Below, in pieces: positions 8,363-63,838 of a DNA stretch of 64,000 nucleotides. The first letter of the stretch is position 1. Every line of letters starts with the position of its first letter. Where the stretch lies: the NCBI GenBank assembly GCA_963822405.1, contig CAWGHH010000001.1, positions 87,296 through 151,295 of the forward strand, in the 5' to 3' direction. The position numbers and the translations under genes were made by a program. Below the pieces are notes generated by a model that was given only the letters and a program-made list of their open reading frames with translations, had not been told where the DNA came from and did no database searches. The DNA is from Candidatus Uhrbacteria bacterium. GTDB taxonomy: Bacteria > Patescibacteriota > Patescibacteriia > UBA9934.

Positions 8363-9538
8363 ATGCGCAACATTCTCATCATCGGTGGTGGAATAGCGGG
8401 CACAACGGCGGCGGATGAGATTCGCAATCGTGATAAAGAATGCTCGATAGTTATTCTGGAAGCGGAAATTCATCCGTTATATTCGCGCGTTCTCTTGCCC
8501 CACTACATAAAGGGTTTGGTGGGTCGGGAAAAAGTGTTTTTGAAACAGCCACAGTGGTATTACGACAATAATATCGAGATCATGCTTGGCGTGCGCGCCG
8601 AGGAGATCAATTTAAAGAACAATTTTGTACTGACTAGCGAAGGCCGAGAGCTGCCGTTCGACGAGCTACTCGTCACGACCGGAACGGAAATCGACCTGCT
8701 AAACGATGATCGTCGTGGTGTATCGTATCTAAATACGCTCGACGACGCTGATGCGTTAGTGGCAATGATCGGCGACCTCAAAACTCGACCAATTGCCGAG
8801 CAACACGCTTTTATTTACGGTGGTGGATTTATTGCGCTTGAGTACGCAAACATCTTTGCGCATCATGGCATTCCGTTTAGCATTGGTATGCGCGGTAAAG
8901 GTTTTTGGTCAAAGATTCTTTCGGCTGAGAGTCAAAAAGTACTTGCTGATCACGCCGGAAAGAATAAGGTGCCAATGTATTTGAACGAATCGTCTATTGA
9001 ATTACTCGGCGACGAAGAATTAATGGGTGTTCGTTTGGCCTCGGGCAAAGAAATTCCCTGCGGCATTCTTGGTGTTGGAATCGGCCACAGGGCAAACGAA
9101 AAAGTAGTCATTGATGCCGGCATTCCAACCAATCACGGCGTCATTGCTAACGAATATCTCGAAACTAGTGTTGAGCATGTGTATACTGCTGGTGATGCGG
9201 CTGAGTTTGACGACGTAAACGTGGGGCGACGCATTCGTTACGGCAACTGGACAAACGCTCTCATGCAGGGGCGAGCTGTCGGCAAGACTATGTGCGGCGA
9301 GCGTACCGCAACTAAGTTTGTCCCAGCGTTTTCAATCGGTTTGCTCGGTTTGCAAATCGTCTTTATTGGCGACACCAGCCGGGAGCATGCTGAGGAGGTT
9401 CGTCAAACCGCCTTAGCCGACGGAAAAGCTGAGGAGGTATATCTTCGAGGAGGAAAATTAGTCGGAGCAGTGTTAATTGGCGACTTAGCTCGCCGAGGAG
9501 CACTTACAAAGAATATTGGCCAAGCCTATGTTGCTTGA
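8363..9538 (+). CDS. FAD/NAD(P)-dependent pyridine-nucleotide-disulfide oxidoreductase (ferredoxin/rubredoxin-reductase-like)
   Basis: GGGIAG dinucleotide-binding motif at the N-terminus and a second Rossmann GGGFIALE; adjacent to the ferredoxin. Confidence 0.65.
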   Translation: MRNILIIGGGIAGTTAADEIRNRDKECSIVILEAEIHPLYSRVLLPHYIKGLVGREKVFLKQPQWYYDNNIEIMLGVRAEEINLKNNFVLTSEGRELPFDELLVTTGTEIDLLNDDRRGVSYLNTLDDADALVAMIGDLKTRPIAEQHAFIYGGGFIALEYANIFAHHGIPFSIGMRGKGFWSKILSAESQKVLADHAGKNKVPMYLNESSIELLGDEELMGVRLASGKEIPCGILGVGIGHRANEKVVIDAGIPTNHGVIANEYLETSVEHVYTAGDAAEFDDVNVGRRIRYGNWTNALMQGRAVGKTMCGERTATKFVPAFSIGLLGLQIVFIGDTSREHAEEVRQTALADGKAEEVYLRGGKLVGAVLIGDLARRGALTKNIGQAYVA

Positions 9539-10591
9539 TTCAGAAGAGATTTATAAGCAGTTTGACCCTGAAGATATTGGGTATGGTATTGAGCATTTGC
9601 CAGAGCAGGCAAACATCGCTTGGCACGGCACTCGCGATCTAAAATTTCCCAAAAATTATAGTGAAATTTCGAACATCGTTATTTCCGGCATGGGCGGTTC
9701 GGCCCTGGCCCACATGTTTTGAAAAGTGTGTTTGCTGATAGACTAAATGTTCCTTTTGAACTTGTTAGCGACTACACGCTGCCACATTACGCGAATAAAG
9801 ACTCGCTAGTTATTTTATCTAGTTATTCTGGAACAACTGAGGAAACATTAGCGATTGCCGAACAGGCAAAGGCTGCGAAAGCAAAGATTGCGGTGATTTG
9901 TGCTGGCGGTAAGCTCGCCGAACTAGCTGAGGCAGAAGGCTGGCCAATATATGTTTTCGAGCCTGGCGATTTGGCCAAGCAGCCACGATACGGAACAGGT
10001 TTTTCGCTCGTTGGCATCATGGGCATGCTCGAAAAAATGGGAGTTTTGAAAATCAAAGAAGCGGAAATTTTGTCCATGATGTCAGCGATGGGCGAGGTGA
10101 TTGATAATTGCGCTACTGACGTGCCTGCAAGTGAAAATCCGGCCAAAGAAGTTGCTACAGAAATTGTAAACCGTTCAATTGTCATCATTGCCGCTGAGCA
10201 TCTTTCGGGAAATGCGCATATATTGCAGAATCAAATGAATGAGTCTGCTAAGCAGTTTGCAACCTTTCAGTTATTGCCGGAACTTAACCACCACTTTTTG
10301 GAGGGCTTGTCCTTTCCAGTCGATCAAGCGGCAAACACGACCGCAATTTTGATTAGATCAAACCACTATCATCCTCGAACGCAAAAGCGTTGTGATATTA
10401 CGGCAGACATTCTCGAGAAAAAGGGGATTACAGTGATAGAATATGCCACAAAGGGCGAATCCAGACTTGATGAAGTAGGCGAAGTCCTCCAGTTTGGCAG
10501 CTATGTTGGTCTCTACCTCGCCTTATTGAATGGTGTAGTCACGACTGATACCGCAACTGTCTTCGAACTTAAGAAACGGATGAATGAATAG
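9516..10591 (+). pseudogene. Bifunctional phosphoglucose/phosphomannose isomerase (SIS domain) interrupted by a frameshift in a T4 run near 9717-9720
   Basis: GMGGSA...VSDYTLP...SYSGTTEET SIS motifs are split across two frames. Adding one T restores ...HMFLKSVFADR... Confidence 0.55.
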
Positions 10592-10594
10592 TTT

Positions 10595-11020
10595 ATGGCC
10601 CTATCTCATCTTGTGTGGAGCAGTGACCTAGAGATTGGTGTGCCGGAGCTTGATGAACAGCACAAGTATTTTTTTGATATAGCCAATAGGATCATTGATT
10701 TACAGGACAAGCTGAATGTCACAAAGGCCGAGATACTCGATGCTATTGGGAAATTAGGTGGTTATTCCATGGATCACTTCGCTACAGAGGAAACTATGTT
10801 GAACCAGTTGGGCGAACCAGCAGTTGAGGCTCATTTAGCAAAGCATGATAAATTTAGAAAAGAAATTAAAGAGTTTATTTTATCGATTGAAGCTTCAGAC
10901 GCCGATGACAAGCAAATTGCCAGCAAGGTAGCTGAGTTTGCCTGTAGCTATGTGAACCATCACATGCTGAACGCGAGAACGGAAAATATTCTGAAGCAAT
11001 TACGAGAATTAAAGAAATAA
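10595..11020 (+). CDS. Hemerythrin-like metal-binding protein
   Basis: W..DL.IGV.ELDEQHK motif. Confidence 0.6.
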   Translation: MALSHLVWSSDLEIGVPELDEQHKYFFDIANRIIDLQDKLNVTKAEILDAIGKLGGYSMDHFATEETMLNQLGEPAVEAHLAKHDKFRKEIKEFILSIEASDADDKQIASKVAEFACSYVNHHMLNARTENILKQLRELKK

Positions 11021-11026
11021 ACTATT

Positions 11027-11452
11027 ATGAAATTTCCCCGCTTTGTTTGGACTACTGATCTAGAAATTGGCATGCCTGAACTTGATGAACAGCACAAGTA
11101 TTTTTATGACATTGGCAACATGATTTTGGACCTTCAAGAGAAGCCAGATGTCACGAAGTCAGAAATGCTAACAGCTGTTGGCAAGATGGGTGATTATGCT
11201 TTTTATCACTTTGATACCGAGGAGGTCATGCTAAAACAGCTTAGTGGACCAGATGTTGAAGCTCACTTGGCGAAGCACGTGGCTTTTCGTAAGGAGATTA
11301 AAGATTTCATCGCCTCAATCGAAAGCAAGGACGCTGATGATAAGCAGATCGCCGACGAGGTTGCGGAATTCGCCCATACATACGTCACGAAGCACATGCT
11401 GAGCGCGAGCAAGGAGAATATCCTTAAACAGTTACAAGCGCTAAAGAAATAG
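11027..11452 (+). CDS. Hemerythrin-like metal-binding protein (tandem paralog)
   Basis: Same length as 10595-11020 and about 60% identical. Confidence 0.6.
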   Translation: MKFPRFVWTTDLEIGMPELDEQHKYFYDIGNMILDLQEKPDVTKSEMLTAVGKMGDYAFYHFDTEEVMLKQLSGPDVEAHLAKHVAFRKEIKDFIASIESKDADDKQIADEVAEFAHTYVTKHMLSASKENILKQLQALKK

Positions 11453-11472
11453 AAGAAAGTTACAAAAGAAAG

Positions 11473-11503
11473 ACCCCCGTCAGCCGATGCTGCGGGGGTT
11501 TTT
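11473..11503 (+). terminator. Hairpin CCCCCG...CGGGGG plus T5
   Basis: Read in sequence. Confidence 0.65.
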
Positions 11504-11522
11504 GCATGAGTACGCGCAGCTG

Positions 11523-12017
11523 TTACGCCGAGGCACTCATGCGAGAGCGGATCTCCATCAGGAGGACATCCGGCGCGATTGGCATGAAGATCATGCCGTT
11601 CCGCCTGAGCGAGGTGGTGGTTTTTGCATCCACCACCTGCATCTCTTTGTTGTTGATGACGTATGACGCGATGGTAGCCATGAAGACCGGATCAAGCGTT
11701 TCGCGGATGAGGCTGATGTCGGGCTCATCCGGTGGCAGACCGGAGAGTTTCTTCAACGCTGCGCCCGGGCGAACGATGATGAAGAGCTGATCAGGTCCGA
11801 TATCCCGATGGATCTTCCGGCAGTCGCGGACTGCGAGGTCGCTGTAGACCAACCGTTTACCACGTTCGTCATAGCAGGCGCACTGGCGCATGAACAGGTG
11901 CATCGAGTCCACCCTGCGGCCATTTGCCAGGCCATAGGGGATGTTCTCGGGTTTTGGGGTCTTAGGCATGGGGCCTCTGAAGGTGGGAGTAACAGGCACC
12001 TTGTCCGGGATGGACAA
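11523..12017 (-). CDS. Hypothetical protein
   Basis: 164-aa ORF. Confidence 0.4.
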   Translation of the reverse strand: MSIPDKVPVTPTFRGPMPKTPKPENIPYGLANGRRVDSMHLFMRQCACYDERGKRLVYSDLAVRDCRKIHRDIGPDQLFIIVRPGAALKKLSGLPPDEPDISLIRETLDPVFMATIASYVINNKEMQVVDAKTTTSLRRNGMIFMPIAPDVLLMEIRSRMSASA

Positions 12018-12121
12018 GATGGAAGGTTAGCGGAAATTTGAATTAATAGCAAGCTTAGTAACTTGGAGCATAGCTTGTCAGTATTATAAAAAAACGTTAC
12101 TCTGCTTCTGTTTTAGACCAT

Positions 12122-12212
12122 GGAAGGGTCGCATAGTTGGTCTAGTGCGCGGCACTCGAAATGCCGTGTACCCGTAAGGGTACCGCGAGTTCGAATCTCG
12201 CCCCTTCCGCCA
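12122..12212 (+). tRNA. tRNA-Ser (anticodon CGA), with a long variable arm and encoded CCA
   Basis: Acceptor GGAAGGG/CCCTTCC; anticodon stem CGGCA/TGCCG with loop CTCGAAA; T-arm GCGAGTTCGAATCTCGC. Confidence 0.8.
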
Positions 12213-12214
12213 CA

Positions 12215-12243
12215 AAAATACAACCGCGAGGTTGTATTTTTGT
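12215..12243 (+). terminator. Hairpin ACAACC-GCGA-GGTTGT plus T5
   Basis: Read in sequence. Confidence 0.6.
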
Positions 12244-12271
12244 GTCCAAGGTTGATACACTCGAAACATCT

Positions 12272-12727
12272 ATGTCTAATAAGGAGTCAATACCCTGGAA
12301 AATGCTTGCTGGCGTGCCGTTCGTTTTGTTATTGGCGGCGATCGTTGTTCCAATCCAATACGTCTTCCGGCTACTTACGGGAAAATCTTGGGAGACAAAA
12401 GATTTGTTCTTTACGGACGATGAGCTGGTAATTTTGGAGAATGCGACTAATAGTGGAGCCCCGATTTTCGTAAACGGTATCGTTCGCGCGCTCAAGCCGT
12501 TCGAAATAAAATCGTACATTCGTCACTCATGTGAAAGTTGTCCTGATGAATTATATGTAAACGATGTATTTGATCGACCTTGTTTGAGTGCTTCGCGAGA
12601 GATCGGTGCTAATCTTTGGAAAATTAGTTGTTCGCAGCCAGTATTGTGGGGATTGCTCGGCCACATCGGCGCCGACCTTGAGACTTTGAGTGTTGAGGGC
12701 AGGTCACTTGGAAAAACTGAGATTTAG
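12272..12727 (+). CDS. Membrane-anchored hypothetical protein
   Basis: ATG after the tRNA terminator; the N-terminal TM segment follows; cysteines include a CESC pair. Confidence 0.45.
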   Translation: MSNKESIPWKMLAGVPFVLLLAAIVVPIQYVFRLLTGKSWETKDLFFTDDELVILENATNSGAPIFVNGIVRALKPFEIKSYIRHSCESCPDELYVNDVFDRPCLSASREIGANLWKISCSQPVLWGLLGHIGADLETLSVEGRSLGKTEI

Positions 12728-12728
12728 T

Positions 12729-13805
12729 ATGCGTCGATTGTTATTTGTATGTTTAGTGATTGCGGGACTTGTCGGTAGTTTTGTGATCGGAGCATTTTGG
12801 TCGAAGCATAATTCGCCATCAGCGATTAATACTATTCAAATCCCATCCCTTGCCGATCAAATTATTCGTGACGCACCGCCAATCTGGCAAACGGTGGAGT
12901 TGGATGGATTTAGTGTTGAAGTCCCATATTCGCCAGATTGGACTGTCAGTGGCATCGGGATTTCTGTTGATGACAAATATGATTCAGAGGTATACGGAAT
13001 AAATTTTGGGCGACCGATAAATAATTCGCATAGTGTTGGTAGAGAATATACTTTAACTCAATATCCGCGAGAGGATCTCGACAACGGCCCGGGCGTGATG
13101 GATCATTCCGGTTGTTATGGAGCATCTTCGAGAGCTACGGTTGGAAATGCACGTGGCGTCATGTTTTTTCAAGGTGGTGCCACATGGTGTAGTTTGAATT
13201 TTGCGTTTACGGTTGGTAGTCATACGTATTATTTAGAACAGCGAGTGGACAAATTTGGGTTACCACCAAAAGAGATCGGTGATGAGATGTCGAGAATCAT
13301 TCAGAGCGTCGCCGAACCGGTATATTTGTCACGCGCGACCAAGCAGCTCACTAAAGAACAAGTGTTGAACGGCTTTGACCCATGTGGAGTTCAGTTTTTT
13401 AACGGTTCAATCAGTTTGGACTGGAACGAATTTTTGCGTATCGACGATGAACATCGAAGGACCATCGGTTCGTCTTGGGAGTCGTGGCGAGATTCTTGTG
13501 ATGCGGGGTCATATCTCGAAGCTGATAATATTAAATTCACAGATTTGGACGGTGACGGCATGAATGAGGCGTTAGTTCCGGCGAGAGTAGTCCAAGCATC
13601 AAGTGGCGGGGTAATTTATGTATTTAAGAATGTCGCCGGAGACGCGCGAGTTGTTGATCGTATAGAATTGGGCAAAGGAAACGGCGAAATAACCCTCGTG
13701 AACAAAAATCTAGTGAAGGTTGATTATCAGGAGTTTACCGCTAGCGGATTGATTCCCGCGAAAGCGACATACCGATTCGTTAATGGACATTTCATTAAAC
13801 AATAG
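12729..13805 (+). CDS. Membrane-anchored or secreted hypothetical protein
   Basis: N-terminal hydrophobic anchor and a large extracytoplasmic domain. Confidence 0.45.
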   Translation: MRRLLFVCLVIAGLVGSFVIGAFWSKHNSPSAINTIQIPSLADQIIRDAPPIWQTVELDGFSVEVPYSPDWTVSGIGISVDDKYDSEVYGINFGRPINNSHSVGREYTLTQYPREDLDNGPGVMDHSGCYGASSRATVGNARGVMFFQGGATWCSLNFAFTVGSHTYYLEQRVDKFGLPPKEIGDEMSRIIQSVAEPVYLSRATKQLTKEQVLNGFDPCGVQFFNGSISLDWNEFLRIDDEHRRTIGSSWESWRDSCDAGSYLEADNIKFTDLDGDGMNEALVPARVVQASSGGVIYVFKNVAGDARVVDRIELGKGNGEITLVNKNLVKVDYQEFTASGLIPAKATYRFVNGHFIKQ

Positions 13806-13816
13806 ATCGGACTAAT

Positions 13817-14446
13817 ATGCCTCCTAAAATTCTGCTTATTCACGGTTTTGCGGTTGGGTTAAGCTCGCCAATTTTACGGTGCAAGCTTGGACCAGAGGCG
13901 GAGTTTTTAGCATTTAAGGATGACATAGCAGATGGTTTGGCGCGAGTTTTCAAGTGGGGGATTCAGGCGAGAGTTGCTTGGAGCCAGCTATTAAACCCAT
14001 TTTACATCTATCGTCACTATAAATTGGAACGTGCCATGGCACTCGATGAGGCGACCCATGAACAATTGCAGATCGAGCTCGAACAAATGCAACCAGAAGT
14101 TATTGTTTGTCATTCAATGGGCTGTGTACTTTTGCAAGCGCATTTATTGGCCTTCAAGCTTCCGTCGAGCGTTCGGGCGATTGTGTTTGTGCAGTCTGAT
14201 TCGGAATTTGGCGCGCGCGTTGATGTGTCTGTACCTGTATACAATTTGTATTGTCCGTGGGATCCAACACTAATTGCCTCTTCACTTACTCGTGGCCAAT
14301 GGTGTGCAGGCTTGCGACCAATGAAGTCACGCGGAACACATAATAGATTGTTTCCTCTTTATCGGTTGCCAAATTTACATACGTCGAGTATCAGGGGAGC
14401 CCAATTGAAACAGTTCGTTCGAACATTGAATCAGAAACATGTCTAA
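13817..14446 (+). CDS. Alpha/beta-hydrolase-fold protein
   Basis: LLIHGF at the N-terminus and a nucleophile elbow CHSMGC. Confidence 0.45.
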   Translation: MPPKILLIHGFAVGLSSPILRCKLGPEAEFLAFKDDIADGLARVFKWGIQARVAWSQLLNPFYIYRHYKLERAMALDEATHEQLQIELEQMQPEVIVCHSMGCVLLQAHLLAFKLPSSVRAIVFVQSDSEFGARVDVSVPVYNLYCPWDPTLIASSLTRGQWCAGLRPMKSRGTHNRLFPLYRLPNLHTSSIRGAQLKQFVRTLNQKHV

Positions 14447-14690
14447 TAACACCGAGTGGTCTGTATACATTGTCCGTTGTTGCGACGGTAGTTTGTATAC
14501 TGGAATTTCAACGGATGTTGAGGCGCGCATAAAAAAGCATAACTCCGGTAAAGGGGCGGCGTACACCAGGAGTCATTTGCCGGTTACTCTTGTTTGGTGC
14601 GAGCTTGCTGATTCGGGATCAGCCGCTCGAAAAAGGGAGGTTGAAATCAAGAAATTATCAAAGGTTGAAAAAGAACGTTTAGTTAAATAG
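14439..14690 (+). CDS. GIY-YIG nuclease-domain protein (UPF0213/YhbQ-like)
   Basis: WSVYIVRCCDGSLYTGISTDVEARIKKHNSGKGAAYT matches the GIY-YIG core. Confidence 0.6.
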   Translation: MSNNTEWSVYIVRCCDGSLYTGISTDVEARIKKHNSGKGAAYTRSHLPVTLVWCELADSGSAARKREVEIKKLSKVEKERLVK

Positions 14691-14729
14691 AGAAGCCCCA
14701 CGTCGAATTTCGGCGAGGGGCTAGCAAGG

Positions 14730-15077
14730 TCACGATGCTTCGACGTGGTATTTGGCGAGCGCCACGTGTTCGTAGAGCGCGGCTGGTTCGATCATGACCA
14801 CGGGGTCTGCGACGTACTTCCAGGGGCCTTCGTACCTGGTCGTCACTTTGACGAGCAACGGGAAGGCGTTGTCTTTTGCGTCTTCCAAACTGCGCGTCCA
14901 GACGGCTCGGATGCCATCCTTGTCGCACAACACAAAGGCGACGAGAGGGCGGGGACCGCCATCTTCCCGACCAGACACAAGGTCAACTATCCACTTCTCC
15001 GCCTTGCGATCACTGTCTGCCATGGCCGTGCCCATGCACGAATTGGCAACATCTTCACAGAAGAGAAACAGTTTCAT
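14730..15077 (-). CDS. Hypothetical protein in a locally G+C-rich patch
   Basis: ORF with a GGAG RBS. The opposite-strand ORFs look antisense. Confidence 0.35.
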   Translation of the reverse strand: MKLFLFCEDVANSCMGTAMADSDRKAEKWIVDLVSGREDGGPRPLVAFVLCDKDGIRAVWTRSLEDAKDNAFPLLVKVTTRYEGPWKYVADPVVMIEPAALYEHVALAKYHVEAS

Positions 15078-15159
15078 TGTGTTCTCCGGTTGGTGGTTGG
15101 TCAGAAAGGTTAGTCGCCGACGGGGGACGTTAGTCGAGTTTTGCCTTGAAGTCAATTCG

Positions 15160-15858
15160 TTAATCGCTATTCGTGTTTGAATGCCACCACAACTGCGCTT
15201 CACTAGGTTTTGTATAAATGGTCGGCTTGGTGGTTGGTCGAGTATCGGTATCGTCAATCATACCAAGTACGCGCATGGTTGTTTCGACCCAGGCAATATG
15301 TCGAGCGATTGCTGCCTCATCACGTTGTCCAAGTTCACCCGACTCAGCCATGATGTAGTTTTTGCCTTGGCGGGCGAGTTGTCCTGGTTTTGAGAATCTA
15401 CCTGTACGCTCGAAAACAATTTTGTCGGTGTCGAGTCGTTCGATGAGTGTACGGGTCAAGGCGTCGACCTCGCTAACTCCAGTTTCAAACAGCCAAACGA
15501 ACGGAATTAGTCTTTCGTCGCTCGCACCACCGTGGAGGTCGTGCCAAACGTCGGCTTGCGAAACGAAATTGGTTGATAGACGGTGCACGAGTCTTGACGT
15601 CGACGATCCCCACGAGCGACCGGGGTAGATATTCTTTGGAAATTTTCCGTCGAGTGGATTCTGGCTACTCTTGTTTTTGAAACCAGCGACATTAACAATC
15701 GGGATCACAATTAATCGACCAGAAAAATTTCCGGCTTTGTATTGATCCGCAATTTGCTTAGCCGCCTCTATCCCGGCATACTCATCACCATCCATTCCAC
15801 CGGTCACAAGCAATGTTTTACCTGGTCGAATACCTGGAATTACAATAGACTCGAACAT
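15160..15858 (-). CDS. Succinylglutamate desuccinylase/aspartoacylase (AstE/AspA) family zinc hydrolase
   Basis: TGGMDGDEYAG resembles the GG.HG.E motif of this family. Confidence 0.45.
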   Translation of the reverse strand: MFESIVIPGIRPGKTLLVTGGMDGDEYAGIEAAKQIADQYKAGNFSGRLIVIPIVNVAGFKNKSSQNPLDGKFPKNIYPGRSWGSSTSRLVHRLSTNFVSQADVWHDLHGGASDERLIPFVWLFETGVSEVDALTRTLIERLDTDKIVFERTGRFSKPGQLARQGKNYIMAESGELGQRDEAAIARHIAWVETTMRVLGMIDDTDTRPTTKPTIYTKPSEAQLWWHSNTNSD

Positions 15859-15880
15859 AGTTGCCTCATTTTACTCCATT

Positions 15881-18652: not shown

Positions 18653-18677
18653 GCAAAGAATGTTACACTGTTAGCAT

Positions 18678-35621: not shown

Positions 35622-36654
35622 AGCAACGAATCTTTTGAAGCAGTTTTGATCCCAAGATGTTCGTAGGCACGTGACGTGGCCATTCGACCGCGAGGGGTGC
35701 GTTCGAGAAATCCTAATTGCAATAAGAACGGTTCGTAAATTTCTTCGATTGTCTCCGTTTCTTCCTGGGTGGCAGCGGCGAGGGTGCCGAGACCGACTGG
35801 TCCGCCATTAAACTTTTCGATTAGCGTTAAAAGTAGATGTCGGTCTACATTGTCGAGTCCAAGCGGGTCGATCGACAGCATAGTTAGTGCGTCATTGGCG
35901 ACCGCTTCCGTAATAGACCCGTCGTGTTTGATTTGGGCGAAGTCGCGAACACGCTTGAGGAGTCGATTCGCAATGCGCGGGGTTCGACGCGCGCGGTCAG
36001 CAATGGCTTGAGCAGCGGGGGAGTCAATTTCAACTTCGAGGATCCCGGCTGAGCGCGTAACGATTCTTCCCATGTCCTCTTGGTTGTAGAAGTTAAGGTG
36101 GAAGGTCGAGCCGAACCGGTCGCGCAGTGGTGACGACAAGAGCGAGAGGCGAGTTGTCGCGCCGATGATGGTGAATGGTTCGAGGCCGAGCCGCAGCGTT
36201 CGCGCCGAAGCGTCCTTTGCCGACGACTAAGTCAAGCGCGTAATCCTCCATGGCCGGATAAAGTACTTCTTCGATCGTCTTATTCATCCGGTGAATTTCG
36301 TCGATAAACAATACGTCACCTTTGGCTAGATTCGACAAAATAGCCGCCAGATCACCGACTCTTTCGAGTGCCTGCCCGCTCGTAATCCGCACATTCGCGC
36401 CCATCTCGCGTGCAATAATATGGGCGAGTGTAGTTTTTCCGAGGCCAGGATTTCCGTATAACAAAATGTGTTCAAGTGGTTCGTTCTCGTTGCTTTGCGG
36501 CTTCGATGAATATGCCCAGGTTCGTCTTCAGTTCATCTTGCCCAATGAAATCACAAAGCCTCTCTGGCCGCAGGCCGAGTTCAATCTTCTGTTCTTCCTC
36601 GACCGCTTCTGGTGCTACTGCTCGAGGTTCTTCATTTACCTGCTCTTCAATCAT
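35618..36654 (-). pseudogene. ruvB: Holliday-junction helicase RuvB, in three ORF pieces separated by two +/-1 frameshifts (about 36200 and 36470)
   Basis: Pieces read ...[22 protein letters not shown] | [22 protein letters not shown]...DLVVGKG | [32 protein letters not shown]... when the frames are joined. Confidence 0.8.
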
Positions 36655-46322: not shown

Positions 46323-46959
46323 TTGTTTTATTTACAAATTCCCTATACCCTATGGGTACGTATGCGCGCAATCTTGATCCACGGTTACAAATCTTCCCCC
46401 GATTCCAATTTTTGGCCTTGGTTAAGGGACGAGTTGGTCGATAGACGGTTTGACGTTGTCATGCCCGAGCTCCCTAATCCCGCCGAGCCGGATCGCGATG
46501 CCTGGATTAAGGCTGTTCTCGACTCCGTTCTGCCCTTTGACGCACGAGGACATAATTGTCGGTCACTCCCTTGGTGGCGCGACAGCTTTGCAGTTTCTCG
46601 AAGCGGCTGAAGCGAGAACAACACCTCATGCTTGTGTGTTGATCTCGACTCCTTGGATGATCAAGGAAGAGCGTTTTCGCGGTTTCTTTTTGACCGAGCT
46701 CGACCATGACGTCCTTATGTGGCGCGCTAGTAAGTTCGTTATTATTCACGCCAAGGACGATCCAGTCATTCCTTTCGAGCATGCCAAACGCTATGCCGAA
46801 GTTTTTCACGCAAAGTTGGTAGATCCCGACACAGGTGGCCACTTCGACGGTCCACAGTATCCGGTAATTCTCGACGCTATTCTCGAAGTTTCCCGTGAGC
46901 CTATTGAATTCGCCCCTGGGGCATCTCTCCCAGACCAGTTCGCCGATATGATAAAGTAG
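46323..46959 (+). pseudogene. YdeN/RBBP9-family serine hydrolase (alpha/beta fold) split by a frameshift near 46535-46545
   Basis: ILIHGYKSSPDSNFWPWL ... IVGHSLGG ... spread over two frames; joined as ...AVLDSVLPF|THEDIIVGHSLGG. Confidence 0.5.
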
Positions 46960-55375: not shown

Positions 55376-55434
55376 TCTTTACATTTTGATTAAGAAGTAG
55401 TCAAAAAATGATTGTATTGATTTTTTAAGCAAAG

Positions 55435-55459
55435 CCCGATTCGAAAGAGTCGGGGGGGG
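55435..55459 (+). promoter_or_regulatory. Module copy 4: hairpin CCGATTCGAAAGAGTCGG followed by a G8 homopolymer
   Basis: Read in sequence. Confidence 0.45.
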
Positions 55460-55492
55460 TAAAATTAGAACAAAGTCACGAACATAATTAAT

Positions 55493-56218: not shown

Positions 56219-56396
56219 TTCTAAATAATCCAACAATTACCCGGCCCCATAAAGGTTGGGTATTTGTTATACTCGACGAAACATAAATTCTATGGACAAT
56301 TTGCCAGGTGAAGGTCGGGGTTTTTGTTTTCGAGCAAAATAAGTCCCCCGCACCAAGATGGTCGGGGGATTTGGCGTGCGGCGAGGTGGACGCGAG

Positions 56397-56874: not shown

Positions 56875-56977
56875 TGGAATATCCTCCCGGCTCAATTTAC
56901 CCTAAATAAACAAAGAGCGCATCCGGAAGGCATGGCCAGCCGGATGGCTGTGGCTCTTTGCCCCGCGGATGCGCGAG

Positions 56978-57436
56978 TTAGGCGGTGACTGGCTCGTAGT
57001 TCAGGAACGAGCGCAGCATGGCGTCAATCCATTCGAACGCCTGGGCGTCGGAAGTTGCGATGGTCGGGCCGGGTTCCCAGGCTTTCAGCTCGGGGAGACG
57101 CGCGAGAAGATCCTTCAGATCTTCATCTTGTTCGTTCTCCGGTTCGGGCCCTTGTTGCGACCAGACCATGCCATGCGACCCGTCTTCGGAGTAGCTGACG
57201 GTCACGATCCAGAATTGCTGATTCCATTCGGCGACTTCGATCATCAGCGCCTGGATGGAATCTTTCTCTGCCGAGAGAAACCAACGAATGCACAGGCCGT
57301 TCTTGGAGATCTCCCAACCCTTGCCGTGCCCGTCTTCGAACGGGGTAATCAACGGCACCTTCTTTCCCGCGTTAATTACGCGGTCTCGCAGTTGATCAGT
57401 CACGTCCAGAATCTGTTCGTTAAACGGTTGAACCAT
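56978..57436 (-). CDS. Hypothetical protein (paralog family)
   Basis: GGGAGGG RBS 7 nt upstream of the ATG at 57436. Confidence 0.4.
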   Translation of the reverse strand: MVQPFNEQILDVTDQLRDRVINAGKKVPLITPFEDGHGKGWEISKNGLCIRWFLSAEKDSIQALMIEVAEWNQQFWIVTVSYSEDGSHGMVWSQQGPEPENEQDEDLKDLLARLPELKAWEPGPTIATSDAQAFEWIDAMLRSFLNYEPVTA

Positions 57437-57596
57437 GTTTGTTACCCTCCCAAGCATGCCGGAACCCCCGGCGGATTGCTGTCTTTCGACCAAAGATATT
57501 GCCATAAATGAGTAGGAAAGTCCAGTTTGGGCTGTTATGGACTTTAAAACTTTACGTCTTTACAACTTTATAACTTCCCCTCATACTGTCACCAAT

Positions 57597-58373
57597 ATGA
57601 ATGACACCAAAGTGGTGATTCTGGCGGCGGGGAAGGGAAAGCGCATGGGCGCTAATGTTCCGAAACCCCTTGTGAAGATAGCGGGAAAGGCCATGATTTC
57701 GCATTTACTGGAAAGGGTGCGGGCGTCTGGGCTCGACCAAAAGCCAGTTGTCATAGTTTCTGTTGACGGAAAAGCTGATTTTGAAGCCGAACTTGGCGAT
57801 TCTGTAGATTTTGCGGTACAAGTTGAACAAAATGGGACGGGCGATGCTTTGCGGTATGCCGAGGAAGCTTGCAAGGGCGCATCGAGAATCATTGTTCTAT
57901 ACGGCGATCATCCATTTATTAGTGCGGACGTTTTGAAGCAACTCGCCGATCTATCTTCGAAGAATCATGGAGATATCGCTATGTTGACGGCGACCGTGCC
58001 AAACTTTGAAGGAGATTTTGGGATGTTTGTGAAGTGGGGGAAAATCATTCGTGAAAATTCGGCGAAGGGGCATGGCGGCGCCATGCCCGTACAAGCGTTG
58101 CGCGAGGTTAAGGATTGCTCGCCGGAAGAGCTGGCGATCACAGAAGTAAATCCAGGGATTTATGCTTTTCCGGTTCCTTGGGTATTCGACAGATTGAAAG
58201 ATGTGAAGAACGAGAATGCCAGCGGTGAATATTATTTGACGGACTTGATTGGGCTTGCTATGCAAGAAGGAAGAAAGATTGTGACTGCGTCAGTAGATCC
58301 TTTGCAGGTTGTTGGGATCAATACGCCTGATGAGCTCATCAAAGCTGAAGAGCTGTTAACTAAATATATATGA
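57597..58373 (+). CDS. Sugar-phosphate nucleotidyltransferase resembling the GlmU N-terminal uridylyltransferase domain
   Basis: VVILAAGKGKRMGANVPKPLVKIAGKAMISHLLERV nucleotidyltransferase signature; no LbH acetyltransferase domain. Confidence 0.55.
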   Translation: MNDTKVVILAAGKGKRMGANVPKPLVKIAGKAMISHLLERVRASGLDQKPVVIVSVDGKADFEAELGDSVDFAVQVEQNGTGDALRYAEEACKGASRIIVLYGDHPFISADVLKQLADLSSKNHGDIAMLTATVPNFEGDFGMFVKWGKIIRENSAKGHGGAMPVQALREVKDCSPEELAITEVNPGIYAFPVPWVFDRLKDVKNENASGEYYLTDLIGLAMQEGRKIVTASVDPLQVVGINTPDELIKAEELLTKYI

Positions 58374-59125
58374 GCACCATAAGACCCGCGGAGGACGTGC
58401 TTGAGAAGCTCGGGCTATCGCCCAAAGAAACGCGCGTGTACATCACCCTTTTGAAGGAGGGGCCGTCCAGCGTTCGCCAAATGGCAGCGGCTACGGGCAT
58501 CAATCGGGGGACGGTTTATGATTCGCTCAAGAACCTGCAAGTCATGGGACTTGCTCGTTTTTATAATAAGGAGACAAAACAGTATTTTGTAGCTGCACCG
58601 CCGGTGAAACTTGAGGAACTCGCCCAAGAGAAGATGGATGATTTGAAGCGCGCAAACGAGAAATTGTCGCACGTAATTGCCGAGCTCGACAGCGTATATG
58701 ACGGGGGAGGAACGGATCCGGTTGCGCGGATGTACGAGGGTCCAGAAGGAATTAAAGTGATTTTGCAGGATGTTTTGGCGAGTATGGAGGCAGCCAAGGA
58801 GAAAGAATATTACGTGTATTCGTCGAGTGCCGTGCGCGAGGCTGGTTTGTACTCGGCATTTTCCACATACACCGCAGAACGACTCGACGCGCGGATTCGG
58901 GTGAAGAACATTTCGCTTGGCAAGGGCGGATCTACGGCTGGACTAGACGAACGTAAATGGATTCCCGCTACGGAAGGCTCGCCAACATATATTTTGATTT
59001 ACGCCGGAAAAGTGGCGAACATTTTCTTAGACAAAAAGGGCGAGCTGGTTGGTTTGATCATTGAAAATAAGGGCATTTATCAAACTCAGAAGATTTTGTT
59101 CGCGTCACTTTGGGAGAGGTTGTAG
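58370..59125 (+). CDS. TrmB-family HTH transcriptional regulator (second copy)
   Basis: LGLSPKETRVYITLLKEGPSSVRQMAAATGINRGTVYDSLKNL. Confidence 0.6.
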   Translation: MSTIRPAEDVLEKLGLSPKETRVYITLLKEGPSSVRQMAAATGINRGTVYDSLKNLQVMGLARFYNKETKQYFVAAPPVKLEELAQEKMDDLKRANEKLSHVIAELDSVYDGGGTDPVARMYEGPEGIKVILQDVLASMEAAKEKEYYVYSSSAVREAGLYSAFSTYTAERLDARIRVKNISLGKGGSTAGLDERKWIPATEGSPTYILIYAGKVANIFLDKKGELVGLIIENKGIYQTQKILFASLWERL

Positions 59126-59781
59126 AATGGGCGAGTATGATCGACGTTGCCACGGTGCAATCATTTTTCATTGATAGCCTTAAATCAGCGCGTGAAGACG
59201 TTGAATTATTTGCGTTAGATTTCTTCAAACTAGTTAGGGCTTTGGGGGTGTGGGCGGTGCCGTTCGTATTGTCGATTATTGCTATCGCTGCGCTTCCTGC
59301 GGTGTTTGCGACGCACATTGGCAAGCTGACCGATGCAATTATCGGTGCTCGAGGTGTGGGAACAATGACGATCGATGTGACGCGCGCGATTCGAATTCTT
59401 ACTGGTGCAACGATCGTTGGTTTTCTTGCTGAAATGTTTTTGAGCAGGTTTGAAGGGAAGGCGGGGGTCATGGCGAGTACGGCGTACGGCCTTGGTGTTC
59501 TCGTTGTTCTGGCGATAATGCTCGGGAATCTAGGGTGGTACGGTGTCGCCCTTTGGCCGATTGTTTTGCTTGTCACTCGAACTATTTTGAAGAAAATTCC
59601 GTATCTGCAGTTTGTTTTCGTGATTCCTGTTGTTCTGTTATTTTTGTCATGTGCGACGAATGTGATTCAGTACGCGACGATCCGTGCGATCACTGTCGGT
59701 GCGGCTATGTCGACGGTAGCGGCGGCGGGGATGTATGCGGTGGTGGTGGCGGTGGTGATGTTGAAACGTGATTCAGCCTGA
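59110..59781 (+). CDS. Integral membrane protein, function unknown
   Basis: About 6 TM helices. Confidence 0.4.
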   Translation: MGEVVEWASMIDVATVQSFFIDSLKSAREDVELFALDFFKLVRALGVWAVPFVLSIIAIAALPAVFATHIGKLTDAIIGARGVGTMTIDVTRAIRILTGATIVGFLAEMFLSRFEGKAGVMASTAYGLGVLVVLAIMLGNLGWYGVALWPIVLLVTRTILKKIPYLQFVFVIPVVLLFLSCATNVIQYATIRAITVGAAMSTVAAAGMYAVVVAVVMLKRDSA

Positions 59782-59874
59782 ACCACCGAGGCCCTTCGGG
59801 GCAGACCAACCACCTCCCCCTACCCCCTCCTTAGAAAGGAGGGGAGGCGAACCATCCTGACCATTAAATACCGT

Positions 59875-60282
59875 ATGCCCAACCATCTCATCGCCGACAT
59901 CCCCGTGAAGGCTCTCATTCGTAAAGACGATAAAATTTTGTTGATCCAGCAGGCGGATGGCAAGGAAGACTGGTGCTTACCGGGTGGTCGTCTGAATAAT
60001 GGTGAACAGCCGAGAGAAGGTTTGCGTCGCGAGATATTGGAAGAAATCGGCGCCGAGATTGAGATCGGTAGGCTCGTCGACTGTACAGTTTTCACGAGTA
60101 AATCCGGCATGAACCATTTTGTGGTAGTTTTCGAGGCGACTCTCGTCGGTAATAGCCAACCAAAGCCGGACGGTGTAGAAATCAAAGATGTTAAATGGGT
60201 TACGCTCGAGGAGGCGTTGAAGATGGAGTTGAGAAGTGAATATCGGGTAATTCTCGAAGGACTCGCCGCCAGGATCAAATAA
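59875..60282 (+). CDS. NUDIX hydrolase
   Basis: Nudix box GGRLNNGEQPREGLRREILEEIG. Confidence 0.7.
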   Translation: MPNHLIADIPVKALIRKDDKILLIQQADGKEDWCLPGGRLNNGEQPREGLRREILEEIGAEIEIGRLVDCTVFTSKSGMNHFVVVFEATLVGNSQPKPDGVEIKDVKWVTLEEALKMELRSEYRVILEGLAARIK

Positions 60283-60322
60283 CACCACCTCTAGGCCCCT
60301 CCTAACGTCGGGGACCAATGCT

Positions 60323-61564
60323 ATGAAAATAATCGCCGATCTACATGTTCACTCCCGTTTTTCGCGTGCATGTTCGCAGGATTTAACACTCGAAAATAAC
60401 GCGTTGTGGTGCGAGAAGAAGGGGGTGAATGTTTTGGGGACGGGGGATTTTACGCATCCACTTTGGTTCAAAGAAATAGAAGAGAAACTCGTCGAAGCCG
60501 AGTCAGGACTCTACAAGTTGAAGAGTGGAGAGTTTTCGAAAATGCGGTTCATGATGACGACCGAAGTCTCGCAGATCTATAAGAGGGGAGGAAAAGTACG
60601 ACGCGTGCACAATTTAATTTTTGCACCAAACATTGAGTGCGTGAAAAAAATAAATGCGTGGCTCGACGAACATAAATTTAATCGGCGGAATGATGGTCGG
60701 CCAATTTTAGGAATTGATTCGGAAGATTTATATCGCGAACTAAAAAACCTCGACGATAAAATTATTCTTGTACCGGCGCACGCGTGGACACCGTGGTATT
60801 CGGTATTTGGTTCGAAGAGCGGGTTTGATTCGCTCGAAGAATGTTTTGGTGAGATGACGAAAGAAATTTTTGCGATCGAGACGGGATTGTCGAGCGACCC
60901 CGCGATGAATCGAACACTTAGTGTACTCGACGACATTTCTTTGATCTCAAACTCTGATGCGCACTCGCCTAAAAACTTTGGAAGAGAAGCGAATGTCTTT
61001 GAAATTGATGAAAAGAAATTATCTTACGATGAAATTATTCGCACGATTCGTGAGCGAGATATTGCACACTTTTTGTATACGATCGAGTTTTATCCGGGGG
61101 AGGGAAAGTACTATGCGGATGGGCATGCACCCTGTGGGCTGACCTTTGAGACTAAGGAGACTTTGAGACTGGGAGGGAGATGCCCGAAATGCGGAGGACC
61201 AATAACGGTGGGGGTTTTGTCGAGAGTTGAGGAGTTGGGGGATCGCCCCACTTTCGACCCCCTCTATCCCCCTAGAAGGGGGAAGGAGCAATCCATTCCA
61301 TTCAAATCCATTGTGCCACTGCCGGAAATACTTGCGCAGTGTTTGGGGGTGTCGAGTGTGTCGTCGAAGAAGGTGATGACGTTGTACGAGGAGATGATAA
61401 AAACATTAGGCAGCGAGTTTAATATTTTATTAGAAGTTTCTGTTTTAGAAATTCGTTCGCAGTTTGGTAACACTGTCGCTGAAGCGATTGCACGAGTGCG
61501 CGCGGGAAAAGTTTCCGTTACTCCTGGTTATGACGGAATATTTGGTGTAGTAAAAATATTTTAA
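60323..61564 (+). CDS. PHP-domain protein of the endonuclease Q / TIGR00375-like family, with a C-terminal CxxC zinc ribbon
   Basis: N-terminus ADLHVHSRFSRACS...LGTGDFTHPLW; CPKCGG. Contains an in-frame hairpin CCCCCTAGAAGGGGG encoding PPRRG. Confidence 0.5.
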   Translation: MKIIADLHVHSRFSRACSQDLTLENNALWCEKKGVNVLGTGDFTHPLWFKEIEEKLVEAESGLYKLKSGEFSKMRFMMTTEVSQIYKRGGKVRRVHNLIFAPNIECVKKINAWLDEHKFNRRNDGRPILGIDSEDLYRELKNLDDKIILVPAHAWTPWYSVFGSKSGFDSLEECFGEMTKEIFAIETGLSSDPAMNRTLSVLDDISLISNSDAHSPKNFGREANVFEIDEKKLSYDEIIRTIRERDIAHFLYTIEFYPGEGKYYADGHAPCGLTFETKETLRLGGRCPKCGGPITVGVLSRVEELGDRPTFDPLYPPRRGKEQSIPFKSIVPLPEILAQCLGVSSVSSKKVMTLYEEMIKTLGSEFNILLEVSVLEIRSQFGNTVAEAIARVRAGKVSVTPGYDGIFGVVKIF

Positions 61565-61577
61565 TTTTTAAACTTTT

Positions 61578-61618
61578 TTCCCGGCAAAGCCGGGCTCGGC
61601 TACGCCGGAAACTTTTTT
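61578..61618 (+). terminator. Hairpin CCCGGCAAAGCCGGG and a second small hairpin, followed by T6
   Basis: Read in sequence. Confidence 0.4.
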
Positions 61619-61732
61619 ACAGCTAAAGTTGTGCACAGCTTGTGTGAATAAAAATGGATGTGTGTTGAAAACTCGATATACTAGTAGCAAGTCAAGCATT
61701 ACTTGACCCGAAGATTTTTAACTCTACGTATA

Positions 61733-61839
61733 TGGCAGTCGCAAAAAAGGCGAAGAAGCCAGCTAAGAAGGTAGCAGCAAAGCGCAAGCCAGCCGCACGC
61801 AAGCCAGCTAAGAAGGCAGCAGCTAAGAAGCGCCGCTAG
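61733..61839 (+). CDS. 35-aa lysine/alanine-rich histone-H1-like basic protein (KKPAKK repeats); absent from the ORF track
   Basis: ATG GCA GTC GCA AAA AAG ... AAG CGC CGC TAG. A TTGACC -35-like element and inverted repeat GTCAAG/CTTGAC lie upstream; a terminator lies downstream. Confidence 0.4.
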
Positions 61840-61881
61840 TTTCTCAGACGAGCATGTCCTTGGAGGAGATGCTGGTCAAAC

Positions 61882-61909
61882 AAAAAATTCCCGTGAGGGA
61901 ATTTTTTTA
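61882..61909 (+). terminator. Hairpin AATTCCC-GTGA-GGGAATT plus T7
   Basis: Read in sequence. Confidence 0.6.
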
Positions 61910-61911
61910 TT

Positions 61912-62030
61912 GTCCTCATCTGATCACTCAAGGGAGAGAGTCCTTAAGTGATCGGATGAGGGGACGACGGCTGTGCAAGCGCATCGTCCACGAGTCACTT
62001 TGCTGTTCTGGCACAGAAAGTGAGAAATAT
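61912..62030. repeat. Structured repeat R1 (three consecutive stem-loops; lacks the 45-nt prefix)
   Basis: About 90% identical to 63890-63999. Confidence 0.7.
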
Positions 62031-62036
62031 GCCGGA

Positions 62037-62333
62037 TCAGTGGCGCTTGATCCAGCCACCGTTATTCGTGCGGTGTCCCTCTGCGTGGATCTTTTTGATT
62101 TCATCCCACAAAGTGGCGCGAGCCGTCTTGGGCGTCATGTCAGCCGGAGCGGCCAGCAGGACGAAGTCGTAGACGGCCTTCCTGTGACAATCGCCACAGT
62201 AGCCGTCATCCCAGCAACAGCACGGGCCTCGCCCGTGGTCCAGGCTCCGGGACTCGGCCCGGCCAGGGTGAAGCCCCGGGCGAGCAACTGCTCGCGAACA
62301 AGGTTCGAGCGCGTTTTGATGATGGGCATGTGC
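62037..62333 (-). CDS. Hypothetical Cys/Gly-rich protein, possibly frameshifted (G+C-rich region)
   Basis: ATG with GGAGGG lies inside the repeat prefix. Two overlapping - strand frames are both protein-like. Confidence 0.3.
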   Translation of the reverse strand, partial: AHAHHQNALEPCSRAVARPGLHPGRAESRSLDHGRGPCCCWDDGYCGDCHRKAVYDFVLLAAPADMTPKTARATLWDEIKKIHAEGHRTNNGGWIKRH

Positions 62334-62335
62334 CC

Positions 62336-62440
62336 TCCAATCGAGCAACGCGATCGCGCATGAGCTGCGCAGTGATCGGTCCTCATCTGATCACTCAAGG
62401 GAGAGAGTCCTTAAGTGATCGGATAAGGAGAGAGCTCAAC
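62336..62440. repeat. Structured repeat R2 (45-nt prefix containing CGCGATCGCG, then the first stem-loop, then diverged)
   Basis: Prefix identical to 63847-63890. Confidence 0.7.
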
Positions 62441-62543
62441 CGCGCGTGTATGGCGGGAGCTCTCTACTGAGTGCTAAGATTTCTGTTTCTACTTGGAACT
62501 TCACCGCGCGAATCTGAGAGCGCGGATAATGAACAACGAATCG

Positions 62544-63089
62544 CTACTTGCGGTAGCCACCAGCGAACCCGAGGGCCGGGTCGCCGTACAGATCGGTGAG
62601 TCCCTGGCTCGCCGCCCAACCGCCGAGGAATGCCTCGATCGGGGCGCGGCCGGGCGCCGTCCCATCTCCGGCTCCACCAAGAATGATCTTCCGGCGCGGG
62701 TCCTCGGGTGTTTCCGGGATTTCGGCCAGGTAGGCCACGCCAATGCGGTGGGCCGCCTCGGACAGTTCCGGGATGCTGTTACCCGGGACAACGGCGGGTA
62801 CGATGATGCACCGCCCGGCTCCGGTTGGGGTGGTGTGGTATCCGTCCTCACACGTGGCGCACCCGGCCGCCACGTGGTTTAGGCGCGCGCCAGTCCGCAG
62901 GTCGGCGACCTGGATGGGCGCCACCTCTCCATGGATGAATCCATGACTTTCGTCGTGGATTCCCTCCATGAACCAGTCAGGCCGCTCGCCCGACCGGTAA
63001 CCGTCGTTGCCCTCTCGCAGGGTGATCCGCGGAGCCGCCGCGATCGCGCAGACCGCGGTTATTATAAGGTGTTCCGTTTCTTCGGACAT
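62544..63089 (-). CDS. Hypothetical protein
   Basis: Strong RBS GGAGGTAA before the ATG at 63089. Confidence 0.4.
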   Translation of the reverse strand: MSEETEHLIITAVCAIAAAPRITLREGNDGYRSGERPDWFMEGIHDESHGFIHGEVAPIQVADLRTGARLNHVAAGCATCEDGYHTTPTGAGRCIIVPAVVPGNSIPELSEAAHRIGVAYLAEIPETPEDPRRKIILGGAGDGTAPGRAPIEAFLGGWAASQGLTDLYGDPALGFAGGYRK

Positions 63090-63299
63090 TTTACCTCCAA
63101 TGCGCCAAAGACGCGGGTTGTCGAAGCAGTTTCCGCTTCGACATAATCTGTCATTCATGATGAAAGATTGTGTCGAAGGGCGAGGAAGAGAGCGTGCGTT
63201 TGCTCCATCCTCCTCGCCATTACGAATGCAGTGTCAAAGAACAATCCACCATTTCTTTTTATGGAAGAAACGGTGACAAAGAAACCGACGCAGGCTATG

Positions 63300-63838
63300 T
63301 TAACGGAAAAGCTTTTCGAGTTCCTCCGTTTGATAGCGGGTGAGGGGCCCGATGATGGACATGGATACATCCATTCCCTCCACGTCCATTCCCTCGACCA
63401 CGTCCCAGAGAGTGATGAGCCCCCAGCAGACGGCCCCCTGCCCGTAGGTGAAGGGGGTGCCGGGTACGGCGATTTCTTCCATCATTCCTATTTTGCAGAG
63501 TGTGGGGAATACCACCACTCCATACAACGAGCTCAGGGAGAACCAGTCTCCCGTCCATCCTTCCTGGGCCTCGTCCGTGGCAACTAGGAGAGCCTCACGG
63601 CTCCCGTCCGGCCGGGTGTAGACCCAGAGGGCCACCCCCGCTCCGCAACCCCGGGGGCGGGTTTCATCCGTGATCCCGAGGTGGGCCAGATGGCCCGCTT
63701 TCCGGTTTCCGAGTAGTGCAGGATTTCCTCCCGCATTCCCAGGAGTAGGTGTGGAGCCACCTCTCGAATTTTTTCTTCGAGGTCATAGACCCAGAAGAGC
63801 TTCCCATCCAAATTTTTATTCAAGTAGACATGGGCCAT
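63300..63838 (-). pseudogene. Hypothetical protein, apparently frameshifted near 63590-63635
   Basis: The ATG at 63838 with GGAGG lies at the edge of the repeat prefix; two overlapping ORFs. Confidence 0.3.

Follow-up and report, generated by a model that had tools for sequence, protein, structure and literature searches.

Frame breaks in conserved genes of an uncultured Patescibacteria genome are very probably consensus errors clustered at GGNCC sites

The frame breaks that interrupt conserved genes in the window, i.e. the whole stretch of 64,000 nucleotides analyzed here, are most probably consensus errors clustered at GGNCC, and most likely methylation-linked nanopore miscalls in a genome of low coverage; we put the probability of this reading at roughly 0.93. 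The organism, an uncultured bacterium of the Patescibacteria (CPR) related to Uhrbacteria and Magasanikbacteria, would thus carry intact PGI/PMI, wzx, wzy, ruvB and hydrolase genes. The first-pass annotation had reported ten frame breaks. Eight of them are present and can be placed to the base (in the PGI/PMI gene, the gene for a protein at 26.4 kb, wzx, wzy, twice in ruvB, in a gene for a YdeN-like hydrolase and in one gene of a paralog pair), a ninth, in a terminal gene referred to as gene A, is plausible, and the tenth, in terminal gene B, is unsupported.

A second reconstruction of the same population is available in the k-mer (Logan) contigs assembled per run from ERR12037365; a search of the literature for this accession gave no match. 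The Logan contigs extend over 46.6 kb (73%) of the window and may share reads with it, in which case the two reconstructions are independent by their algorithms only. Over this length, they differ from the window by only 14 events, comprising 10 indels and 4 pure substitutions, which is the opposite of real strain divergence. Stretches of 5.2, 3.2 and 2.8 kb are free of differences and another of 12.9 kb contains a single one. The Logan contigs keep the reading frame at all seven of the window frameshifts that they span, with intact gene calls of 486, 406, 276 and 158 aa and a read-through of the hydrolase gene, and the eighth (PGI/PMI) coincides exactly with a contig break. The absence from the second reconstruction of every window frameshift that it spans bears out the reading preferred at first pass, namely consensus errors of the indel type in a metagenome assembly built from long reads or at low coverage. 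In addition, Pfam domains that are interrupted at the breaks become continuous upon repair, and the repaired proteins recover junction residues conserved in relatives (GMGGSALGP; VGKGPSARTLRL). No further frameshift was found either with the Logan contigs, over 73% of the window, or with Pfam on the other ORFs checked, whose domains are full-length or absent. Start and stop calls outside the sites described below, as well as long homopolymers, appear reliable over the cross-checked 73%.

The PGI/PMI gene (9528–10591, + strand) has lost one G at 9707..9708, which turns CTGGGCCCA into CTGGCCCA (GGGCCC to GGCCC). The split itself, previously ascribed to the T4 run at 9717–9720, is real, but it lies 10 nt upstream of that run. 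PGI/PMI homologs are single proteins of 353–356 aa with an invariant GMGGSxLG motif followed by P, and the addition of a G at 9707–9708 is the sole repair that yields ...GGSALGPHVLK. Repair leaves the SIS domain unbroken across the junction (Pfam). The Logan reconstruction breaks exactly at the PGI/PMI lesion, with the boundary between contigs L002 and L087 at 9706. This site, which relies on homology and on the contig break, is more weakly supported than the others, as is that of terminal gene A, which relies on composition.

Three further genes have each lost one base. At 26.4 kb, an orphan, secreted-looking protein (gene 26099–26928) is interrupted at 26413, where the window reads GCGG-GCCAG and the Logan contig GCGGAACCAG, the true sequence being possibly GCGGGACCAG; Logan contig L005 contains an intact ORF of 276 aa, so that the reported split is confirmed, although its strand had to be corrected, as the gene lies on the - strand. 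No att-like direct repeats were found bounding the G+C-rich island at 25–29.5 kb beside a tRNA-like hairpin. The gene of the Wzx flippase (29604–31063, + strand), reported as split at about 30.6 kb, lacks a T at 30602 (GGTTCGG to GGTCGG), and contig L001 encodes an intact Polysacc_synt protein of 486 aa, to which relatives align in a single frame over residues 2–481. Similarly, the wzy gene (O-antigen-ligase-like; 31060–32279, + strand), reported as split at about 31.28 kb, lacks a G at 31284 (GGGCCC to GGCCC); L001 encodes an intact Wzy_C protein of 406 aa, to which relatives align in a single frame over residues 5–405.

The ruvB gene (35618–36654, - strand) is broken twice, as first noticed at about 36.2 and 36.47 kb: by a spurious extra C at 36211, within GGTCC/GGACC, and by a spurious extra T at 36484 (CGTCTC to CGTTCTC), both bases being absent from L001. 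Once 36211 is repaired, the junction reads VVGKGPSARTLRL and matches ten relatives; the junction previously built by hand, with GKG directly followed by ARTLRL, was wrong and reads GKGPSARTLRL. Repair of 36484 gives KQRDEPLEH, in agreement with the EP(L/I/V/M)EH motif conserved in ten relatives. A hidden GGTCC site at 36484 was considered and rejected: the GGTTC present there is genuine because relatives conserve E at that codon. The repaired protein matches RuvB_N over positions 1–159 of 159 in one stretch (Pfam). Its closest relatives are 79% identical in metagenome contigs and 69% identical in species-representative genomes, and an exact-pattern scan of metagenome contigs did not find the same species in other public data.

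The Logan contigs have errors of their own where the window is intact. In L001, a 4-base deletion at 36374..36380 (- strand) breaks ruvB and an extra C at 37609–37611 breaks the gene at 37394–38473; both reconstructions are therefore noisy, at different positions. The two also differ by a cluster of three substitutions at 31182–31186, where relatives favor the window reading, IRFSIGPVP.

These data bear on the possibility that the frameshifts are real mutations by which a reduced symbiont sheds ruvB, pgi, the O-antigen genes and others. CPR genomes are reduced, and the loss of recombination and envelope genes is known from some symbionts. The share of genes hit is also high, as about 11% of the window genes (about one in nine) are affected, for an indel density of about 15 per 100 kb. 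The window resembles symbionts undergoing reductive evolution in that many genes are frameshifted, DNA-repair and envelope genes included. However, pseudogenes of such symbionts are reproducible across data sets and gain substitutions and deletions, whereas the lesions of the window are missing from a second reconstruction that shows just 14 differences from it over 46.6 kb and that carries different lesions in the same ruvB gene. Moreover, one-base repair leaves all conserved motifs and full Pfam domains, with no other damage, and indels exceed substitutions (10 versus 4) and fall at one sequence motif. Ongoing gene decay, which had been kept as an alternative at first pass, is effectively excluded.

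The two remaining breaks placed to the base also correspond to surplus bases in the window. The gene of the YdeN-like serine hydrolase (46362–46959, + strand), reported as split at about 46.54 kb, contains an extra base and two substitutions at 46530..46533, where the window reads GTTCTGCCC and the Logan contig GTTGGTCC. Logan contig L003 reads through this site in frame, and the repaired protein (198 aa) matches Ser_hydrolase over positions 2–155 of 172 in one stretch. As had been noted for one member of the paralog pair at 56.4–57.4 kb, the gene at 56397–56874 (- strand) is split; a spurious extra G is present at 56579, within GGACC, and L004 contains an intact ORF of 158 aa, which shares 24% identity (E 3e-8) with the neighboring 152-aa gene product. 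Decoding of the split genes by programmed ribosomal frameshifting or transcriptional slippage, in favor of which there is nothing beyond the frame breaks themselves, has a negligible probability: no slippery heptamer or homopolymer is present at any junction, RuvB is one continuous, single-frame match across the 160 related loci retained from two scans, the Wzx, Wzy and PGI homologs are likewise encoded in a single frame, and the Logan contigs lack the breaks.

The differences between the two reconstructions are strongly associated with one motif. Nine of the 14 events overlap GGNCC (binomial P ~1e-13) and six overlap GGWCC (P ~1e-9), with a motif background of 0.7–1.5% of positions. Three of the four pure substitution events are C/T discordances at the fourth base of GGTCC, the window reading GGTCC and the Logan contig GGTTC at 18095 (+ strand) and 37350, and the reverse at 35584. 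The Logan contigs are also interrupted at such contexts, with breaks at two GGTCC sites (44496 and 46853), one GG(G)CCC site (9706) and a G11 run, which hints indirectly at disagreement among the reads. Discordance is seen at only about 10% of the GGNCC sites, and no recognizable motif accompanies five of the 14 events. One indel, an extra G at 61592 (GCCGGC to GCCGGGC, L004 versus window), falls in an intergenic spacer and affects no reading frame.

Contig breaks at several sites are also what true variant bubbles would give, and surface-polysaccharide genes often vary between strains, both of which are compatible with a population in which intact and frameshifted alleles coexist and from which the assemblers chose different ones. 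Such a polymorphism is very unlikely. It needs at least eight frameshifted alleles accompanied by hardly any point differences over 46.6 kb, all of these alleles on one haplotype, housekeeping ruvB and pgi included, and population genetics explains neither the association with GGNCC nor the C/T exchanges at the fourth base of GGTCC. It is just as hard to credit that some of the frameshifts, e.g. those of wzx and wzy, are genuine alleles present beside intact ones in the natural population; if they were, these alleles would amount to on/off variation of a surface polysaccharide in an episymbiotic CPR bacterium. A milder version of this reading would take the error pattern as a usable footprint of GGNCC/GGWCC cytosine methylation in an uncultured Patescibacteria lineage.

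The association with GGNCC also weighs against ordinary homopolymer-length or random low-coverage errors in which base modification plays no role, which we consider unlikely, if conceivable. Four indels do alter runs of 2–3 bases (GGG/GG at 9707, 31284 and 61592; TT/T at 30602), and low coverage by itself raises consensus indel rates (PMC9262707). However, runs longer than three bases contain no indel, none of the 19 runs of at least seven bases is discordant, apart from the contig junction at the G11 run, and neither the GGNCC enrichment nor the repeated C/T swap is expected at random. The confinement of the indels to short runs, with long runs unaffected, also means that the earlier warning about homopolymer lengths, said to be unreliable everywhere in the window, is not borne out.

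Consensus errors at GGNCC could arise as follows. A cytosine methyltransferase of the SinI, AvaII or Sau96I type would modify the inner C of GGNCC or GGWCC, and the underlying reads would be ambiguous at short contexts, chiefly GGNCC (GGTCC, GGACC, GGGCCC). At these contexts, where reads were modest in depth and short reads were not used for polishing, the consensus caller would have lost or gained one base or exchanged C and T. We infer that the platform was nanopore, that the motif is methylated and that coverage was low. An error pattern bound to a motif is the known nanopore signature at methylated bases, and a cytosine methyltransferase is therefore its most likely cause. No DNA methyltransferase gene or domain was found among the annotated genes of the window. 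GGWCC is mildly under-represented in the window, with 61 sites observed versus about 92 expected.

Two published situations offer points of comparison. In R10.4.1 nanopore data, native bacterial DNA modifications lead to systematic C-to-T and G-to-A errors, both in the reads and in the assemblies (Liu et al. 2024, Genome Res, PMC11610603). As in that study, the errors of the window recur at one short motif and persist into the consensus, they include C-to-T changes, or G-to-A on the opposite strand, at one set position within the motif, and two consensus methods disagree at the motif sites. In contrast, the modification-linked errors published there are mainly substitutions, whereas the events of the window are mostly one-base indels; moreover, GGNCC/GGWCC is not a motif reported in that study, and the platform and the modification are presumed ones in the case of the window. 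Below about 40-fold coverage, gene calls are fragmented by indels that persist in nanopore genome bins (Sereika et al. 2022, PMC9262707; proovframe preprint, 10.1101/2021.08.23.457338). Here too, single-base indels divide conserved genes for single polypeptides between two frames, and such breaks can be repaired by polishing or with homologous proteins. Unlike these cases, for which long homopolymers are the classical cause, the indels of the window lie in runs of at most three bases and the long runs agree between the two reconstructions.

The frame breaks being consensus errors rather than gene decay, they represent an ordinary data-quality artefact, and the value of their analysis lies in quality control, not in biology. 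It would be wrong to infer from the window that RuvB, PGI or O-antigen functions are missing or decayed in this CPR genome. Homopolymer correction would be no remedy, whereas motif- or modification-aware polishing, short-read correction or protein-guided correction would work. As a by-product, the error pattern predicts a GGNCC/GGWCC cytosine methyltransferase in the organism.

Both genes of the terminal G+C-rich region had been described as frameshifted. In gene A, an orphan gene (63300–63871, - strand), the candidate lost base lies at 63683..63687, in the context ATCTGGCCCAC, which on the - strand is identical to the context of the PGI/PMI site. The codon-position G+C indicates a phase switch near 63.70–63.64 kb, and the addition of one base at 63683–63687 creates a single ORF of 190 aa. 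A homolog search found no relatives of gene A and no Logan contig is present there; because of the lack of homologs, we rate this frameshift as plausible and no higher. Gene B (63158 to 62544, - strand) has only two homologs, distant and partial, which are colinear with it in one frame; the claimed frameshift is therefore unsupported, and a tblastn search with its hits displays no second frame.

Other candidate ORF pairs were suggested by a codon-usage scan together with the ORF list, the scan alone being too noisy. Six of these frame-switch candidates (613–2046, 2111–3114, 4657–6346, 12236–13805, 14730–15870 and 52075–53179) turned out to be separate genes or intact according to Pfam and the Logan gene calls. 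Exact look-ups gave no match for 10595–11020, 40205–42394 and 61854–62363, in the first case because the gene caller picked a different start, giving 135 aa versus 141 aa.

The gene splits described in the first-pass annotation are visible in the ORF list and in three-frame translations of the window, and Pfam matches show that conserved domains are severed at the frame breaks. RuvB_N, the AAA lid and RuvB_C are found in three different frames of the - strand, the Polysacc_synt (Wzx) and Wzy_C ORFs each adjoin an orphan ORF in another frame, and the ORF ahead of bact-PGI_C is short and out of frame with it. Eight of the ten frameshifts claimed were confirmed, one (terminal gene A) is plausible and one (terminal gene B) is unsupported.

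A second reconstruction was provided by Logan contigs, which were retrieved by exact-protein look-ups and all come from one sequencing run, ERR12037365. In Logan, each run is assembled on its own from 31-mers with two or more occurrences, giving Cuttlefish2 unitigs and Minia3 contigs (PMC12424806), so that the consensus method is unrelated to that of the window. Eight contigs cover 46.6 kb (73%) of the window, at positions 1–5162, 6533–22566, 25305–29533, 29539–38322, 44496–46853 and 51943–61941. Only 14 difference events occur over these 46.6 kb, indicating that both reconstructions represent the same population. All seven claimed frameshifts that are spanned appear in Logan in the in-frame version, which supports the consensus-error interpretation preferred in the first-pass annotation. 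Compared to Logan, the window (i) lacks one base at 26413 in the 26.4 kb orphan gene (- strand), a T at 30602 in the Wzx gene and a G at 31284 in the Wzy gene; (ii) contains an extra C at 36211 and an extra T at 36484 in the RuvB gene, and an extra G at 56579 in the 56.4 kb paralog; (iii) displays an extra base together with two substitutions at 46530–46533 in the YdeN-like hydrolase gene. Gene calling on the Logan contigs yields intact Wzx (486 aa), Wzy_C (406 aa), 26.4 kb (276 aa, - strand) and paralog (158 aa) products, and the hydrolase site is read through.

Frameshifts absent from the window occur in one Logan contig, L001, where RuvB is split by a 4-base deletion (36374–36380) and gene 37394–38473, unbroken in the window, by an extra C at 37609. 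Where three clustered substitutions separate the two reconstructions (31182–31186), relatives favor the window (IRFSIGPVP; IRFHIGPIP in L007). Both versions are noisy, at different positions, as predicted by sequencing error and not by real mutation. Gene decay, the alternative put forward in the first-pass annotation, is rejected, as the lesions are not reproduced by Logan and the affected genes show no other damage. The uncovered 38.3–44.5 kb stretch probably holds more differences, since the Logan gene products include no exact match to the 729-aa protein encoded at 40205–42394, which carries two Lamin-tail domains; the window ORFs within this stretch are intact.

The break in PGI had been placed at the T4 run 9717–9720, about 10 nt away from the position to which homologs and frames point (9707–9708). 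PGI homologs are single proteins of 353–356 aa with an invariant GMGGSxLG followed by P; in the window, GGSAL and GPHVLKSVF fall in consecutive frames, one G being common to both, and GGSALGPHVLK is restored only by adding a G at 9707–9708 (CTGGCCCA to CTGGGCCCA). The lesion is thus a collapse of GGGCCC to GGCCC, as at 31284. Logan contig L002 ends and L087 starts exactly at 9706, and this contig break suggests that the reads disagree there. In the terminal G+C-rich region, neither a Logan contig nor a useful homolog was found. The codon-position G+C of gene A (63871 to 63300, - strand) changes phase near 63.70–63.64 kb, and a single 190-aa ORF results once one base is added at the third CTGGCCCAC context (63683–63687); judging from the sequence, a frameshift here is plausible but not proven. 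The frameshift proposed for gene B (63158 to 62544) has no support, since the alignments with its two distant homologs stay colinear and in a single frame.

Repair restores canonical proteins. RuvB_N is matched in one stretch (1–159/159), and the repaired RuvB junctions, KQRDEPLEH among them, agree with ten relatives; Ser_hydrolase is matched over 2–155/172, the SIS domain is unbroken across the PGI junction, and the Wzx and Wzy relatives match across the junctions in one frame. Programmed frameshifting fails, given that there are no slippery sites and that the homologs are all single-frame. Intact and frameshifted alleles coexisting in the population would have to include at least eight frameshift alleles, almost without linked point differences, and would leave unexplained the sequence motif at which the differences gather.

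Of the 14 differences, 10 are indel events and 4 are pure substitution events, the reverse of the ratio expected from real strain divergence. No indel lies in a run of more than 3 bases, and none of the 19 homopolymers of 7 or more in the window is discordant. The G11 run at 54693–54703, 34 nt upstream of ORF 54737–55375, is only a junction between two Logan contigs; as these overlap by G11 alone, its true length is uncertain. When either version is counted, an overlap with GGNCC is seen for 9 of the 14 events and one with GGWCC for 6, against a chance overlap of ~0.7–1.5% of positions (binomial P ~1e-13 and ~1e-9, respectively). Three of the four substitutions (18095, 35584 and 37350) oppose GGTCC to GGTTC, and two more Logan contig ends (44496 and 46853) lie directly at GGTCC. 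Such an enrichment is not accounted for by simple random or homopolymer errors; low coverage probably contributes. Residual indels break up gene calls in nanopore bins under ~40-fold coverage (PMC9262707). The split genes represent a familiar type of assembly artefact, with the useful refinement that the errors follow GGNCC, not homopolymers.

The base that flips to T in the substitutions is the inner cytosine of the motif. This is the base modified by SinI/AvaII-type (GGWCC) and Sau96I-type (GGNCC) methyltransferases. Native bacterial DNA modification leads to C-as-T and G-as-A miscalls at the modified motif in R10.4.1 nanopore reads and assemblies (PMC11610603). No methyltransferase gene was seen among the annotated genes of the window. 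From the motif enrichment, the C/T flips, the published modification-linked miscalls and the existence of inner-cytosine methyltransferases, it is inferred that the window goes back to nanopore reads, probably of DNA carrying methylation at GGNCC or GGWCC, which would have been of modest coverage and left unpolished. GGACC (28 sites) and GGTCC (33 sites) are under-represented in the window compared to the ~46 each expected from tetramer counts, a shortage that would fit restriction-site avoidance or site loss via the same consensus errors.

The window is a bacterial chromosome segment of 47% G+C with 23S and 5S rRNA genes and four tRNA genes. The best relatives of repaired RuvB are metagenome-assembled genomes of Candidatus Uhrbacteria, Magasanikbacteria and other Patescibacteria, with identities peaking at 69% for species-representative genomes and at 79% for metagenome contigs, hence an uncultured CPR bacterium without a close sequenced relative. 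The rRNA region (48792–52022) contains a 23S gene of 3032 nt, ~100 nucleotides longer than the 2925-nt model, with 5S alongside; no 16S gene is present anywhere in the 64 kb, so the rRNA genes are unlinked, as is common in Patescibacteria. Two islands (c. 25000–29500 and 62000–64000) reach 59–60% G+C inside this 47% G+C genome and encode orphan proteins without Pfam match. The proteins of the first island are 201, 276 and 771 aa long, the N-termini of the first two being signal-peptide-like; flanking direct repeats were looked for at this island and none was found. Between this island and wzx lies a tRNA T-arm-like hairpin (GGTGGGTTCCAATCCCCACTGC, c. 29525–29550), at which ARAGORN called no tRNA and where L005 and L001 leave a 5-nt gap (29534–29538). 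Seven small same-strand genes stand in a row at 21899–25174, the first matching PF18895 (T4SS_pilin); internal repeats (24500–24654 and 24972–25126) identify at least the final two as paralogs. Finally, two adjoining hemerythrin-domain paralogs of 135–141 aa each are found at 10595–11452.
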